From: an uncultured delta proteobacterium
GTDB lineage: Bacteria > Desulfobacterota > BSN033 > UBA1163
NCBI GenBank assembly: GCA_963827685.1
Contig: CAWHBU010000004.1
Location: 672,943-704,942 of the forward strand
Direction of reading: 5' to 3'
DNA length: 32,000 nt
The notes under the pieces are model-generated. The model saw only the letters and a list, made by a program, of their open reading frames with translations. It did no database searches and was not told where the DNA came from. Position numbers and translations under genes: made by a program. This document shows, piece by piece, positions 26,480 through 32,000 of the stretch (its first letter is position 1; every line of letters begins with the position of its first letter).

Positions 26480-27698
26480 TTAAGGCCGATGGAACCGTAT
26501 CATATTATCTAAAACTTCCACTGCTCTTAGCGCAAAAGCAGGGTCACTGATATGAACGTCCATCTCTTCAATAGGGATGTTAGGGTTGATGAGCTTTCTC
26601 AATTCTTCTACAAAAATCTGGTCCGTCTTTGGATCATAAAGCTCCATTCCAGCTTTGTCAGCTTCAGACCAACCTTTCTTGGGGATCAGGACATAGGCCG
26701 GTCCCTTTGATCTGTTCAATTTTTCTCCAATGATGTAAGCAAATTTTTTCATCTCTTCAGGTCCCATACGGACACAGAATCGGATATCATGGGAATGTAT
26801 CTTTCTCCCTTTTAGTTGGTCTGGCATAGGATAAAAAGGACTGAATACGGCATTATCGAGCCCCTCCTGGCACAACCACTTGAGGGATTCCGAACTGCCC
26901 TGCGGTTTCCAACCGCATGGGACCGATCCCTTTGCAATATCCTCCAAACATTTCATCTGCTATCTCATGAGTAGTAAAATCAAGCACACCAGCAACCAGG
27001 CCTTCAGCAATGAATTCTTCCATGGCCATTCCACCGATTCCATTGGCGTGAAAAGCAATCATTTCATATCCTCTTTCTCGAAGGAGAGATTCCGCCTGCA
27101 TTGCACAAACTGAATTGATGCCGTAGGCTGTCACAGCAACCATGGGGTTTTCTTTTTTTATCACGCTTCCTTTTTCTATCATTCCGCCTATGGCATAAGC
27201 GGCTTGTCCCAGCATCAGACGCATAAATTCATTGGAACCCAAAATATCTGCTACCGAATGGAACATGACAATATCTTTCGTTCCGATATATTCCCTGATA
27301 TCTCTGGAGGCCACTGTGGAAAGTACCACCTTGGGCAGGCCGAAAGGAAGGGAACGCATAATATGGGTTACGATCGCTGTTCCTGTTCCGCCTCCCATCC
27401 CAAATACCCCATGGAGTTTGCCTTTTTCAAAGAGTTCTCTTGCCAAGATAGCCCCGCCTTCTTGGACGGCTTTAATAGCGAGAGAACGATTTTTTTCTTT
27501 GATTAAATGTTCCCAATGATACCCGGCAGCCTCCATCACCTCGACTCGATGGATATCCGGATGGGTGAGAGGTTCTCCCAAAGTTCCGATATCCATCAGG
27601 ATAGGATGTATACCGAGTTTTTGTGCGCAATCCTTTACATAAGCTGCTTCGTTTCCCTTTGTATCCAAAGTGGCAATGATGAGCAGTTGTTTTTTCAT
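26480..27698 (-). pseudogene. UPF0261 / Tm-1-like protein, second copy, interrupted by a 1-nt frameshift in a G4/C4 run at 26861-26864. Either a pseudogene or a sequencing error.
   Basis: The 281-aa ORF ends ..ETAGQFGIPQVVVPGGAR*. The 158-aa ORF continues in the other frame with GLDNAVFSPFYPMP...LIPKKGWSEADK. Removing one G restores GIPQVVVPGGLDNAVF, which is collinear with the intact copy. Confidence 0.7.
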
Positions 27699-27828
27699 TT
27701 TTATCTTTTCCCAGTATTTCCCAAACTAAAGGAGGTTACATTAATTTATCAGGACTTGCGCTATTTTTCAATTTTTTCTATTGAAATTTTTTCGGAGGGA
27801 AGATATCCTTTTGAGAGGAGGGCTGAAC

Positions 27829-28455
27829 ATGTCACAGATCATCGTCGCACAGAATGTCCACGGGATTGTTTTGGCAGGTGAGAATCGGGCGATCCAATTG
27901 GATGAAAAAGGAAATGAAATTTCATTACAAATAAATCGTCTCCTCCCGCTCACTTCTCATTGTGCTCTTCTAACAGCCGGGGCAGCAGAAGGGAAGGATA
28001 TGGGAAATGCTTTAAAGAGTTTTCTCCTCGGAGAGAAGCTCAATGACGTGCAAGACATTTATGGAGCAGCGCTCGCCTATCTTTCTACAGAATACGAACA
28101 ATTCATGAGAAAGAAGTGTGAATGGCTACCTGTTGATCCCATCCATCAGGTTTCCTTCGTCCTGGCTGGAAGAACAGAACGGGACCCAGTGATGCCCTTC
28201 CGGCTTTACTTCCTTTGGACAAAAAAGAAACTTCCCCGACTCGATGGGGATGAAATTTCTCACGCCTTTTCCCTGCCGAGGAGAATGGGTTTGGAGTTTC
28301 GGTTAAACAAGATGTGTAAAGAGAACGCTTCGTTGAAAGAGATTTTAAGAAAGATGACAGACGGAATGGAGCAATTAAAAAGTAAGGGGGAGGTAAGCGG
28401 TCCATTCTCCTTCGCCACGATCACCCAGGAGGGATTTCAATCTCTCAATCCCTGA
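27829..28455 (+). CDS. Proteasome-beta/HslV-like Ntn-hydrolase-fold protein (208 aa) with Ser directly after the initiator Met.
   Basis: MSQIIVAQNVHGIVLAGENRA...LLTAGAA...VSFVLAG...RLYFL...SGPFSFATIT follows the beta-subunit strand pattern (TTIVG..dGVVLAaDtRa). ATG 27829 follows GAGAGGAGGG. Confidence 0.5.
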   Translation: MSQIIVAQNVHGIVLAGENRAIQLDEKGNEISLQINRLLPLTSHCALLTAGAAEGKDMGNALKSFLLGEKLNDVQDIYGAALAYLSTEYEQFMRKKCEWLPVDPIHQVSFVLAGRTERDPVMPFRLYFLWTKKKLPRLDGDEISHAFSLPRRMGLEFRLNKMCKENASLKEILRKMTDGMEQLKSKGEVSGPFSFATITQEGFQSLNP

Positions 28456-29192
28456 AGGAAACTCCTCACATTTTTACCGAGAACGGAGTGGTTATAGCCT
28501 CCTTCGAGGACTCCAAATCGTCTTCCTTGGCAGCGCTCGAGAGAGGCCTCTTTGGCCCATTTTCCGATGGTGAAATAGTCCTCGGTCTTAAGCAGCCCTC
28601 CCCAGTCCTCTTCGTGGCGGTCAAATCCTGCAGAAATCGCGATGACATCATAGGGTCGTTCTGTTTGAAGAGATCGTTGGACTTCTTCTAAGAATCTCTC
28701 CCTGCGAATCCCTTCAGGATGAAAATAACTCACTGGACTTGAGCCACTGAAGGTATTGGATGTGCCGTCGCCATAATGGAGATCGAAATCGAGGATAAGA
28801 GCGCTTTTGATCTTTTCCTCACTGATGAGCCTTTTGATGGCAATGGCAATATTATTGAAGTAACAGAACCCCCAACAGGAATGGGGACTGGCATGGTGCC
28901 CTGGAGGCCGGATCAAACCGAAAGCAGGCTGGCCCTCACAGGCCATTTCCGCTGCAAGAATGGCCCCTCCAGCGGCGAGAATTCCAACTTCATAAACCTG
29001 AGGCTCCCCTTTAACAAATTGAATGTGACTCTTCCCATGAACTCTCCCCATATCCCTCTCTGAAGCAGCCTTCGGTTCAATGAATTCAAATTCTTTCTCC
29101 AGCGCCTCCACCATGGGCTCCATCCTCCCGGCAGCCGCCGCCGGATCGGAGGTGTAGACTTCATAAAATCTTGGATGAAAGACGACCTTCAA
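28437..29192 (-). CDS. Histone-deacetylase-family Zn amidohydrolase (AcuC/APAH-like), compact 251-aa form, TTG start.
   Basis: IRPPGHHA, FCYFNNIAIA, LDFDLHYGDGT and LEGGYN motifs. AAGGAGGG lies 6 nt before TTG 29192. The 3' end overlaps the convergent gene by 19 nt. Confidence 0.85.
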   Translation of the reverse strand: MKVVFHPRFYEVYTSDPAAAAGRMEPMVEALEKEFEFIEPKAASERDMGRVHGKSHIQFVKGEPQVYEVGILAAGGAILAAEMACEGQPAFGLIRPPGHHASPHSCWGFCYFNNIAIAIKRLISEEKIKSALILDFDLHYGDGTSNTFSGSSPVSYFHPEGIRRERFLEEVQRSLQTERPYDVIAISAGFDRHEEDWGGLLKTEDYFTIGKWAKEASLERCQGRRFGVLEGGYNHSVLGKNVRSFLQGLRD

Positions 29193-29239
29193 GGCTTTCC
29201 CTCCTTTAACCTAGCTATATTATCATACTCTTCCCATTG

Positions 29240-29274
29240 TTGACAATTCTTTCAGATTGATATATAGTATATAC
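29240..29274 (+). promoter_or_regulatory. Near-consensus promoter (TTGACA-17-TATAGT) with an overlapping GTATATAC palindrome, upstream of the TA pair.
   Basis: ttgaca is at 29240-45 and tatagt at 29263-68. The palindrome gtatatac is at 29267-74, a likely antitoxin operator. Confidence 0.45.
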
Positions 29275-29301
29275 AAATTATACAGTGTTGGAGGTGAATG
29301 C

Positions 29302-29550
29302 ATGACAACCCAGATGATTATTAGAATAGACCCTGAGGTTAAGCTCAAGCTCAGTAAACTTGCCAGGATGGAAGGGAAGACGACAAGCCAGATGGTAAGG
29401 GAACTGATAGAGGACTATACCAAAGAAAGGGATATTGGCACTTATATTGATGACCTGTGGGGAAGAATTGGGGGAAAATTGAGATCCAAAGGGGTAAGAC
29501 AAAGAGATATCGATAAGGCGATCAAAGAGGTAAGAAGAAGCCGAAGATGA
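29302..29550 (+). CDS. Ribbon-helix-helix (CopG-like) antitoxin, 82 aa.
   Basis: MTTQMIIRIDPEVKLKLSKLARMEGKTTSQMVRELIEDY gives a beta-strand plus two helices. GGAGGTG precedes ATG 29302. There is an ATGA overlap with the PIN gene. Confidence 0.75.
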   Translation: MTTQMIIRIDPEVKLKLSKLARMEGKTTSQMVRELIEDYTKERDIGTYIDDLWGRIGGKLRSKGVRQRDIDKAIKEVRRSRR

Positions 29551-29954
29551 GAGTCGTTATCGATACCAATATCTTTGTTTCATCCTTTTTCGGAGGTAAC
29601 CCCCGGAAGATCATTGACCTCTGGAAAAAAGGGAATATAAACCTTTGCCTATCCAATGATATCCTTGAAGAGTATGTGGATGCTTTGCGGAGAGTCGGAT
29701 TAAAAGAAGAAGAGGAGATCGAAGAACTTCTCTCTCTTTTTGCTAAGGGTTTCAATATTATCTTTACCACAAACACACCAACGATAAAGGTAGTAAAAGA
29801 TGATCCTGATGACGACAAATTTATAGAATGTGCAGTCGGCTTAAAGGCTGAAGTCATCATCACTGGAGATAAGGCTCTGAGAGCGATGGGTGAATATATG
29901 GGGATTAACATATTAACCCCTCAGGAGTTCTTAAAGATCTATGAACCTCACTGA
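29547..29954 (+). CDS. PIN-domain toxin (PIN_3-type), 135 aa.
   Basis: MRVVIDTNIFVSSFFGG...DDDKFIECAV...VIITGDK shows the acidic residues of a PIN nuclease. Confidence 0.85.
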   Translation: MRVVIDTNIFVSSFFGGNPRKIIDLWKKGNINLCLSNDILEEYVDALRRVGLKEEEEIEELLSLFAKGFNIIFTTNTPTIKVVKDDPDDDKFIECAVGLKAEVIITGDKALRAMGEYMGINILTPQEFLKIYEPH

Positions 29955-30025
29955 AATAGTGGTCCAACTGGGCAGTGTGCAGCAGATAAAGACCAATCTT
30001 GAAAAACCAACGAGCGTATTGAAAA

Positions 30026-32000
30026 TTGATAAAGACATTTATTAGCCATAGCTCCACTGATCATCCGTTTGTTGAATGGCTTAAAACAAAGCTTGAAAGA
30101 GAGAAATTAGGGTTAGATATTTTTGTCGATGATGGATCTGTTTTTGTAGGTGATGATCCGCAAAAAATGATAGATGAGGTTAAAAGGTCAATTATTTTTA
30201 TTCCAGTTTTATCGAACGAATCAGTAAGAAAAGAATTTGTCCAAAATGAACTTAAGACAGCAAATGAGAGTAAAACGACATATATTTTTCCTGTCAAACT
30301 AAAATGTGATAAAGAGAATATTCCAAAGGTAATCAAGGCAGAATTTACAGCTTTCGATAAGGTTGAGGGTAAAATTTATGAAGACTTTTCTAATGAGAAA
30401 GAGTGGGATATTCACTATGAACATTTGAGGAGGGCAATTTTTGACAAAATTGTTGAATTAGGCCTCTTTAAAGAAGATACTAAAGACTTCTATCAGGACT
30501 GTGAACATCTTGATTTAATAATTCAAAGAGAAGATCCAACAATTCTTGAAATAAAAGCGGTTATAGATGTTTATCTGAAAAAGGAACCATATCAAAGATA
30601 TTTTTTCAGCAAACTGACTAATGTAAAATGGCTTAAATATCTAAAACTGTACGGTTATTTAAAAAGTAATCCTCAACCCATTGAGGCTCAGGATTCCCCC
30701 GGCTCTTTCATCATCCCACAGTGGCATGCATTAGAGTATTTGGAGAAAGTTTCCAACCAGATTTCCAGTAACGAAGAAGCTATTGGTGACCTTCTTGAAA
30801 TAATCAAATCTGTTACCCATCTTAGAGATGCATCGGGCAAGCACATAGAAAACTACCGTACTTGGTATTACTTTACGAAGATTTTGCTTAATCTACCAAA
30901 TGCGAAGATCAGTGAAGAAATAGTCAATCTCATTCCTGTCTGGCTCGATTCAAGGTTCAGCACGTCTCTGCCGGGTGCTGAAATAGTCGGAAAGCTATTA
31001 CCCAAGTTCTTGAATAGCAGCGAACCCGAAGACTGGAAAAAAGCAGAAAGAATCATAGAAATAGTTACGGATATCAAATGGGTTGAGGTCCCCGAAAAAC
31101 AGAGGGATATCCATGGAAGAGAAAATGAACCAAGAACATTTGTCGAACCTTATTGGCTTAAGGAGGGTATTGAGAAACATTTTGAAAGAATTGGGGAGGT
31201 TTGTTCGATAAGTTCCATAGATGGGATGGCGAAGAAGATTCTTGCCATATTTTGCAGGCAATACCAACACTCATACGATGTAAACTATGAAGGTGAAGAC
31301 TACCAGATAACCCATTCACTACTAGAGAATGGCTTGCACCAAATTTCTGTTTTTTCCCTTAAATATCCCAAGAACTGGGATGGATACAGCAGAGAGAAAA
31401 TAGAGAAAACATTTGCATTGAGCTTTGTCATTTCCGAGCTTGAGAATAAATCTCAGTTTATTAGGAAAGGCAAAGAACTTCTCGCCGAGAAGTACTTCCC
31501 GGGCCTCAAAGACGAATTCGATAAGCCATTGTCATCAATTTATTCTTTATACGACTACTCATATGTTTGGTACAGCTCGTTGAGTGAAACAATCAAGCAC
31601 GTAAGTCTTGAGCATGCGGAAAGAATCCTTACATTCATTCTTAAAGAGGTTCTTGCCGCAAAGGCTCGTGCCAATAGAGATGAGACATCGGAGATCCTAG
31701 ATAGATTCCTTAGCAGAGACTATCCTTATCCTCTTTTCAAACGTCTTGTGATATTTATCGCTTCAGGAGATTGGGATAAATATAAGGAATATTTCTTCAA
31801 GTCCATTGACCTTGAAGAAATCAATGTTTTTGAAGGGGCGGATTACCAAGCTGAACTCTCTGCCTTGCTCAAAGGTAACTTCAATAAATTTAATGCGGAT
31901 GAAAAAAGAATTGTAAAGATGATCATCGAAAAGGGGCCAGAGCGGGTTTCTCCTGAGGATCCACAAGGATACAAAGCCTATTGGAAACAGAAATGGCTTT
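30026..32000 (+). CDS. Large TIR-domain protein. N-terminal ~140-aa TIR domain plus >500 aa of unrecognised, probably alpha-helical sequence. The 3' end lies beyond the window.
   Basis: Not in the ORF track. The frame is open from the stop TGA 30020-22 to position 32000 (658 codons; I translated it throughout). The first usable start is TTG 30026: (M)IKTFISHSSTDHPFVEWLKTKLEREKLGLDIFVDDGSVFVGDDPQKMIDEVKRSIIFIPVLSNESVRKEFVQNELKTA. This matches the bacterial TIR pattern (FISxSxxD, vDD, G, I.VLS..S....E). All minus-strand track ORFs here are antisense shadows. Confidence 0.75.
   Translation, partial: MIKTFISHSSTDHPFVEWLKTKLEREKLGLDIFVDDGSVFVGDDPQKMIDEVKRSIIFIPVLSNESVRKEFVQNELKTANESKTTYIFPVKLKCDKENIPKVIKAEFTAFDKVEGKIYEDFSNEKEWDIHYEHLRRAIFDKIVELGLFKEDTKDFYQDCEHLDLIIQREDPTILEIKAVIDVYLKKEPYQRYFFSKLTNVKWLKYLKLYGYLKSNPQPIEAQDSPGSFIIPQWHALEYLEKVSNQISSNEEAIGDLLEIIKSVTHLRDASGKHIENYRTWYYFTKILLNLPNAKISEEIVNLIPVWLDSRFSTSLPGAEIVGKLLPKFLNSSEPEDWKKAERIIEIVTDIKWVEVPEKQRDIHGRENEPRTFVEPYWLKEGIEKHFERIGEVCSISSIDGMAKKILAIFCRQYQHSYDVNYEGEDYQITHSLLENGLHQISVFSLKYPKNWDGYSREKIEKTFALSFVISELENKSQFIRKGKELLAEKYFPGLKDEFDKPLSSIYSLYDYSYVWYSSLSETIKHVSLEHAERILTFILKEVLAAKARANRDETSEILDRFLSRDYPYPLFKRLVIFIASGDWDKYKEYFFKSIDLEEINVFEGADYQAELSALLKGNFNKFNADEKRIVKMIIEKGPERVSPEDPQGYKAYWKQKWL

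Follow-up and report, generated by a model that had tools for sequence, protein, structure and literature searches.

A TIR domain on a Dsr1-type sensor: a predicted antiphage protein of an uncultured delta proteobacterium as an effector-swapped relative of Dsr1

Dsr1 stands for defence-associated sirtuin 1, a system reportedly treated by Gao et al. in 2020 and Garb et al. in 2022. DSR1 depletes nicotinamide adenine dinucleotide (NAD+) upon infection (Garb et al., bioRxiv 10.1101/2021.12.14.472415), and the main text of a recent study describes a bilobed helical-repeat sensor found both in Dsr1 and in Avs7, a STAND protein (Lee et al., Nature 2026, PMC13581612; preprint PMC12803255). According to that text, EcDsr1 and SeAvs7 both have a unique trigger, the phage major capsid protein, and the same sensor without a STAND NTPase is found on “NADases, nucleases and protein kinases” (PMC13581612, PMC12803255); in Avs7 the sensor clamps the phage major capsid protein between its two lobes, and SeAvs7 also engages EF-Tu (PMC13581612). 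A TIR effector is not named in the main text of Lee et al., and a literature search for a TIR domain swapped onto the DSR1 sensor returned nothing relevant. Here we describe a gene of this constitution at the end of a 32,000-nucleotide stretch of an uncultured delta proteobacterium (GenBank assembly GCA_963827685.1, contig CAWHBU010000004.1, positions 672,943 to 704,942), the whole of which is referred to below as the window. The gene encodes a protein of 1211 residues joining a TIR domain to a sensor of the Dsr1 type, and represents an effector-swapped relative of the known Dsr1 system; its sensor is not of a new kind. In our estimation the protein is probably a single-chain antiphage receptor, in which recognition of a phage capsid by the Dsr1-type sensor would lead to NAD+ depletion by the TIR domain. 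The gene and its parts are placed in the window as follows:

30026 to 32000, plus strand: first 658 of the 1211 codons of the gene for the TIR domain and Dsr1-type sensor, which runs past the window end (open frame; Logan contig L004; public protein P0131; PADLOC Dsr1).
30026 to 30028, plus strand: TTG start codon; the aligned codon in relatives is TTG, GTG or ATG.
30167 to 30169, plus strand: internal ATG (Met48) used by the public gene call, P0131 beginning 'MIDEVKRS...'.
30026 to 30430, plus strand: TIR effector domain, residues 1-135 (Pfam; PDB profile; Foldseek; AlphaFold2 model, AF2).
30248 to 30250, plus strand: GAA codon of Glu75, the predicted catalytic glutamate, in an FxxxE motif standing for WxxxE (PDB profile alignment).
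30431 to 30541, plus strand: helical linker between TIR domain and sensor, residues 136-172 (helices 124-144 and 151-167 in the AF2 model).
30542 to 32000, plus strand: N-terminal part, residues 173-658, of the predicted Dsr1/Avs7-type alpha-solenoid sensor, which continues to residue 1211 (PADLOC PDLC04166; P0124; PDB HEAT/ARM matches).
31268 to 31432, plus strand: four-stranded beta insertion, residues 415-469, within a variable cassette of residues ~350-700 (AF2 strands 415-421, 424-432, 438-446 and 460-469).

The C-terminal region of this protein, more than 500 residues of which had been set down in a preliminary description of the window as matching nothing, is recognised by the PADLOC Dsr1 model PDLC04166 even when only the window fragment is searched (E=1.4e-40), and at E=1.6e-153 in the full protein. 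The match covers model positions ~305-1225, all of them beyond the SIR2 domain. Residues ~154-1211 of the protein correspond to this sensor, and the second half of the linker, from residue 154, is already aligned with Dsr1. A profile of the sensor alone also recovered proteins bearing Pfam SIR2_2 on the same sensor. One of these, the metagenomic protein P0124, shares 66% identity with the window sensor across 473 aa and itself matches the complete PADLOC Dsr1 model (E=1e-264). Among annotated plasmids, 119 records were found to match the protein, 117 of them on Bacillus plasmids, and 14 of 15 among the plasmid matches listed are annotated as “SIR2 family protein”. The Bacillus mycoides plasmid protein WP_235713404.1 (PADLOC Dsr1, E=6.5e-159) aligns with the window protein from the linker to the last residues (28% identity over 1082 aa, E=7e-118), the alignment beginning at 'DFYQDCEHLD', residue 314 of this Dsr1 and just past its SIR2 domain. 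Apart from one beta insertion in the sensor, the AF2 models (predicted local distance difference test, pLDDT, 91 and 86) are all-helical beyond the TIR domain. Judged by this homology, the region is the already described Dsr1 sensor, a predicted alpha-solenoid of ~1040 aa, and the novel sensor domain proposed in the preliminary description is refuted because the C-terminal region matches that of a described defence family. A stand-alone TIR system with a sensor of no described family is on this evidence extremely unlikely: Pfam holds no model for the region and solved structures match it only as generic solenoids, but the Dsr1 model match, the 66% identity to a SIR2-bearing Dsr1, the end-to-end Bacillus alignment and the description of this sensor in 2026 all argue against it.

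At the other end of the protein, Pfam TIR_2 matches residues 5-132 (E=3e-16). A search of the family profile against PDB matched AbTIR, PdTIR, BtpA/TcpB and Cat1 at E-values of 1e-8 to 7e-12 (about 1e-8 to 1e-12), and the AF2 model of the window part of the protein (658 residues, pLDDT 91) shows a canonical TIR topology at the N-terminus, which is the only alpha/beta domain in the model and which Foldseek superimposes on the TIR domains of MyD88, SARM1 and AbTir with template modelling (TM) scores of 0.6-0.75. Glu75, the glutamate of the sequence 'QNEL', aligns in the PDB profile search with the Glu of AbTIR 'WTNYE' (WxxxE, as in PdTIR), which we take to be the catalytic E208 of AbTir, and is invariant in 37/37 TIR-bearing homologs. 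The domain therefore combines the TIR fold with the conserved catalytic glutamate of enzymatic TIRs, and is predicted from its sequence to act as an NAD+ hydrolase or cyclase. P-loop/NTPase (NACHT-type), SIR2, STING and SAVED domains were not found in a Pfam scan of the window protein. On these points the preliminary description proved accurate: the TIR N-terminus starting at TTG 30026 is confirmed by TIR_2, the catalytic Glu had been placed correctly in 'QNEL', and the four domains it had not noticed are indeed absent by that scan. A homology search with the TIR domain alone returned only fragments and short TIR open reading frames (ORFs), and did not separate a depleting TIR from a signalling one.

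The matches of the TIR domain in PDB and PADLOC bear on whether it depletes NAD+ itself or makes a signal. As in ThsB of Thoeris, the TIR domain might generate a cyclic ADP-ribose (cADPR)-type or ADPR-derived nucleotide activating a separate effector encoded elsewhere. AbTIR and PdTIR, its closest solved TIRs by sequence, produce cADPR isomers, and among the PADLOC TIR models, of which those for Aga_TIR matched best (E~1e-9), ThsB was also matched weakly (E=0.0067). However, no gene is conserved beside the homologs, the island in the related Syntrophaceae metagenome-assembled genome (MAG) L002, taken as a proxy for the region past the window end, stops after one DUF5615 gene and is followed by housekeeping genes, and the TIR domain occupies the exact position of the SIR2 and PIN effectors on near-identical sensors, which fits the role of a terminal effector. 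A signal-generating role is in our judgement improbable, and a TIR domain that would itself consume NAD+ is the reading we carry forward.

Compared with described systems, the protein is closest to Dsr1, being likewise a single polypeptide without an NTPase, in which an N-terminal effector predicted to target NAD+ is joined through a helical linker to an alpha-solenoid sensor of ~1000 aa; homology extends over the full length of the sensor, and homologs of the window protein are found in defence islands. It differs in that a ~135-aa TIR domain takes the place of the ~300-aa SIR2 domain of Dsr1 (SIR2_2, model positions ~1-300), in that the chemistry of NAD+ cleavage would be another, with a TIR activity probably dependent on TIR-TIR assembly, and in that its sensor includes, in its central part, a variable cassette bearing the beta insertion. 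Because it lacks the sirtuin domain from which the family takes its name, the protein cannot strictly be called a Dsr1. Both the Dsr1 sensor and the single-protein organisation are present, and no partner gene is conserved across the examined homolog loci; together with the defence-island context of the homologs, this supports the stand-alone, single-gene system that had been proposed for this DNA, and the protein appears to act on its own. By analogy, the protein most likely acts like Dsr1.

Other relatives share less. DSR2, which consists of SIR2 and a HEAT-like C-terminal domain and senses the phage tail tube protein, resembles the window protein in joining an NADase head to an extended helical-repeat sensor for a phage structural protein, but belongs to another sensor family with another trigger, there being no PADLOC DSR2 match and DSR2 not being among the Foldseek matches. 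SPARTA TIR-APAZ, AbTir, Cat1 and TIR-STING provide the best TIR matches (PADLOC Aga_TIR, PDB), with only the ~100-aa TIR core in common. In these systems sensor-driven oligomerisation turns on the TIR NADase, and they differ from the window protein in their sensing partners, such as pAgo/APAZ, CRISPR cyclic oligoadenylate (cOA) and STING. As for Thoeris, no ThsA-like gene (SLOG, Macro or SIR2) was found beside homologs in the examined loci, and ThsB is matched only at the E-value given above. Avs7 has a homologous sensor, following the Dsr1-Avs7 link drawn in the main text of PMC13581612, and interchangeable N-terminal effectors are typical of both. Unlike Avs7, the window protein lacks a STAND NTPase or oligomerisation module (Pfam, AF2 model); it is hence not an Avs7, and the ATP-driven tetramerisation of Avs7 cannot apply to it. 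The protein belongs with the defence proteins that carry swappable effectors on Avs7/Dsr1-type sensors (Lee et al. 2026), the inclusion of Avs7 following the main text of that paper.

A search of 1.84 billion cluster representatives with the sensor profile identified 4554 proteins at E<=1e-3, of which 1813 reached E<=1e-30. To 323 collected family members we assigned N-terminal types using hidden Markov models built for this analysis, which gave 68 fused TIR, 17 fused SIR2, 191 sensor-only, 25 with another domain and 22 fragments; sensor-only forms are thus the majority in the sampled clade (191/323), and WP_277057262.1 is an example of a TIR fusion in the sensor family. All four of the N-terminal domains of ~260-320 aa that were scanned contained PIN_12 (Pfam), and a PIN_12-sensor subgroup of ~1275-1345 aa comprises P0185, P0265, P0303, P0316 and P0324. 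Both of the sensor-only proteins inspected, P0003 and P0024, have a separate SIR2_2 gene directly upstream and therefore represent split Dsr1 systems, and, judging from these two loci, many “effector-less” sensors would belong to two-gene split Dsr1 systems. At loci L023 (4030-8225) and L024 (672-4978), the SIR2_2 gene (320 or 390 aa) is separated by 0-9 nt from the sensor gene of ~1045-1065 aa that follows it. The effectors of this one sensor clade are accordingly of four kinds: TIR, SIR2 or PIN_12 nuclease domains fused to the sensor, and SIR2 encoded by its own gene upstream.

Effector exchange is also recorded within the window gene. Compared in steps of 50 residues, the protein agrees at 86-96% with the lineage of L002, P0007 and P0127 over residues 1-250, whereas residues 250-1211 are nearest to P0003, which belongs to a split SIR2 system, at 62-94% identity, and window positions 30841-32000 show 86% DNA identity to the P0003 gene. 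Over the central cassette (residues ~350-700, which continues past the window end) identity to L002 and P0007 falls to 0-32% with a length difference of ~100 aa, the cassette being absent or replaced there. Synonymous divergence from L002 is 0.11 in the TIR segment and saturated in the cassette, where divergence from L023 is 0.39. By these comparisons the gene is a recombinant, with a TIR module resembling one lineage and a sensor like that of the split SIR2 form. Identity among relatives is 72-97% in the TIR domain and 43-77% in the sensor, as would be expected if a conserved effector were combined with a sensor subject to diversifying pressure.

The same variability bears on what the sensor recognises. 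With the architecture unchanged, the sensor, and especially its swapped cassette, might recognise a non-capsid phage protein or a host-phage complex. Consistent with this, residues ~350-700 are as little as 0-32% identical between proteins that agree at 86-96% over their N-terminal 250 residues, synonymous divergence varies several-fold along the gene, the sensor diverges faster than the TIR domain, and SeAvs7 engages EF-Tu as well as capsid in the main text of PMC13581612. On the other hand, the unique trigger reported in that text for both tested sensors, EcDsr1 and SeAvs7, was the major capsid protein, and capsid proteins are themselves diverse, so that swapping the cassette may shift the sensor from one capsid to another and not to a different class of protein. 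We regard a non-capsid trigger as a real possibility, though an unlikely one, and retain a capsid as the trigger of the TIR-bearing receptor.

The reading frame itself is intact. As the preliminary description had stated, a plus-strand frame is free of stops from 30023, after a TGA at 30020-30022, to the window end at 32000 (659 codons), and at the 7.3% of stops per codon expected from local base composition an open frame of such length has p ~1.5e-22. It extends beyond the window without a break: Logan contig L004, identical to window 28872-32000 (0 mismatches in 3129 bp), lengthens the frame to 899 codons, and P0131 (1164 aa), from an NCBI/ENA contig which also encodes the window's neighbouring proteins, coincides exactly with this protein from Met48 through to the stop. 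Counted from TTG 30026, window frame and P0131 together give the full-length protein of 1211 aa. TTG 30026 is the sole start codon ahead of the TIR beta-A strand 'KTFISHS', and is the probable start because relatives start at the same aligned position and the structure model agrees. The public gene call, starting at ATG 30167, removes 47 TIR residues, comprising the beta-A and beta-B strands and the BB loop, and for this reason no Pfam domain is annotated in P0131; with the Met48 start hiding the TIR domain, automated defence-system finders would miss the effector. The ratio of nonsynonymous to synonymous divergence (dN/dS) is 0.08-0.28 in all segments of the gene where it is measurable, and the gene is therefore under purifying selection. 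The ORF is thus real and intact at 1211 codons. Its low G+C content, remarked on in the preliminary description, is likewise real (37% in the gene and 32% in its TIR part, against 47% in window 1-29200), but the contrast had been overstated, as no 1-kb window exceeds 52.4%.

Upstream of the gene lie four further features:

29240 to 29268, plus strand: promoter-like site TTGACA-17-TATAGT upstream of the RHH gene, sigma-70-like and near-consensus (11/12 in a consensus scan).
29302 to 29550, plus strand: RHH antitoxin gene (Pfam RHH_1).
29547 to 29954, plus strand: PIN_3 toxin gene (Pfam PIN_3, E=5e-22).
29967 to 30022, plus strand: conserved leader of ~60 nt, a relic of an MmeI-like 3' end containing a Shine-Dalgarno sequence (leader alignment, translations).

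From ~20.6 to 31 kb the window is syntenic, at 72-84% nucleotide identity, with Syntrophaceae MAG L002 and L017, which share the LysR, PPDK-like, UPF0261, deacetylase-like, RHH, PIN and TIR genes; cluster mates of window proteins are named Thermodesulfobacteriota. Because related Syntrophaceae-like genomes carry the gene at the same place in the chromosome with this level of identity, it is a long-standing resident of the site and not a recent insertion. The horizontal acquisition suggested in the preliminary description therefore holds in so far as the gene is a mosaic through recombination, but not as a recent arrival. Searches for a homolog of the protein in phage genomes, for repeats flanking the toxin-antitoxin cassette, for tRNA genes and for Rfam families found none. 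Two smaller differences were observed along the syntenic stretch. The UPF0261 (Tm-1-like) gene (window 26480-27698, minus strand) is split by a frameshift into two overlapping ORFs of 281 and 158 aa where L002 has one ORF of 404 aa, reflecting either a pseudogene or an assembly error, and window 27712-28436 (ORF 27781-28455, plus strand, 224 aa, no Pfam match) is a small indel, absent from L002 and L017 and present in L013.

The RHH-PIN cassette (window 29208-29996) is likewise an indel, since L010 and L013 share both of its flanks and hold ~130 bp in its stead. Elsewhere, three unrelated RHH/PIN families (28-29% identity) lie upstream of Dsr1-type genes, including the split SIR2 locus L023. 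As the pair is missing in L010 and L013 and the families at this position are unrelated, we rejected it as a component of the system and consider the toxin-antitoxin pair an optional neighbour; its recurrence upstream of Dsr1-type genes may be due to chance, to a hotspot of insertion common to these loci or to some link in function. A scan for terminator-like sites between the PIN and TIR genes found none, and the RHH, PIN and TIR genes may be co-transcribed from the predicted promoter at 29240-29268. Downstream, a DUF3800 gene or fragment directly follows the Dsr1-type gene in L001 (4752-5231), L005 (9332-9970) and L024 (4975-5175), a split SIR2 locus included. DUF3800 is absent from L002, L006 and L007, and was rejected as a conserved partner.

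Closer inspection of the leader points to its origin. In L007 and L012 an intact MmeI-like type IIG restriction-modification gene ends in '...VYWAVCELVKNRLQKARSV*' (asterisk, stop), 3 nt before the TIR start, and the leader relic in L001 retains 'VYWAVCELVNYRLDKARSV*', while the window leader translates as 'WSNWAVCSR*RPILKNQRAY*'. The alignment and translations indicate that leader 29967-30022 is the decayed relic of the 3' end of such a gene. Among distant TIR-type homologs, some lie directly after type I hsdRMS genes and others between an MmeI-like restriction-modification gene (before) and a PLD-helicase gene (after). The Shine-Dalgarno sequence within the relic is weakened, reading AACGAG in the window as opposed to AAGGAG in relatives. 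At locus L026 (817-4303 of a 55-kb contig), the one match of the TIR-only search that was inspected, a TIR ORF of 154 aa is followed by ORFs of 257, 357 and 291 aa. The arrangement looks like a frameshifted copy of a TIR-Dsr1-type gene and may represent a pseudogene or an error in long reads.

Such signs of decay might mean that the window gene, whether decaying or poorly expressed, is a passenger which no longer works in defence. The Shine-Dalgarno site, with two substitutions against relatives, combined with a TTG start, the frameshift splitting the nearby UPF0261 gene and the fragmented copy at L026 are consistent with this. However, a frame of 1211 codons has remained open where 7% of codons would be expected to be stops, dN/dS is 0.08-0.28 with the catalytic Glu retained, and a TTG start is the norm in the family. 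We judge a passenger gene quite improbable, and return to a functional receptor that would couple capsid recognition to NAD+ depletion.

In the mechanism we propose for this receptor, the resting sensor would keep the TIR domain inactive until it bound a structural protein of the phage soon after its synthesis, the major capsid protein being the likeliest candidate. A conformational change or self-association would then bring TIR domains together, and the assembled domains would hydrolyse NAD+ through Glu75, the resulting NAD+ depletion blocking phage replication. Several observations weigh against this proposal. The capsid trigger comes by analogy from E. coli Dsr1 and Salmonella Avs7, neither of them TIR-bearing, and the one annotated Dsr1 that was aligned shares 28% identity with the protein. 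PDB searches by profile and Foldseek returned only generic HEAT/ARM solenoids for the sensor, and no Avs7 or Dsr1 structure. The cassette is hypervariable and swapped by recombination, and specificity may differ accordingly. Also, homology alone cannot separate an NAD+-depleting TIR from a signal-producing one, and the weakened ribosome-binding site together with the TTG start suggests that expression may be low.

A wider, tentative idea follows from the finding that near-identical sensors (62-94%) carry TIR, SIR2, separate SIR2 and PIN effectors, all without an NTPase. The Dsr1-type sensor might be a ligand-induced assembly platform able to switch on any effector, and the central cassette (residues ~350-700, with or without the beta insertion) a plug-in specificity module which retargets it between capsids or other phage proteins; taken jointly, we consider these two suggestions speculative and on balance doubtful. 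As a TIR domain needs self-association to become active, the TIR variant offers a natural test case for the assembly platform.

With these results, a region of ~1000 residues previously taken as “unknown” is resolved as a Dsr1/Avs7-type sensor with a trigger published in 2026, which removes a false lead. An uncharacterised gene of the Thermodesulfobacteriota gains a testable function, in which the TIR domain would deplete NAD+ through Glu75 when triggered by capsid. For the sensor family, the locus provides a clean natural example of effector shuffling, in which a TIR module from one lineage has recombined onto a sensor nearest to that of a two-gene SIR2 form.

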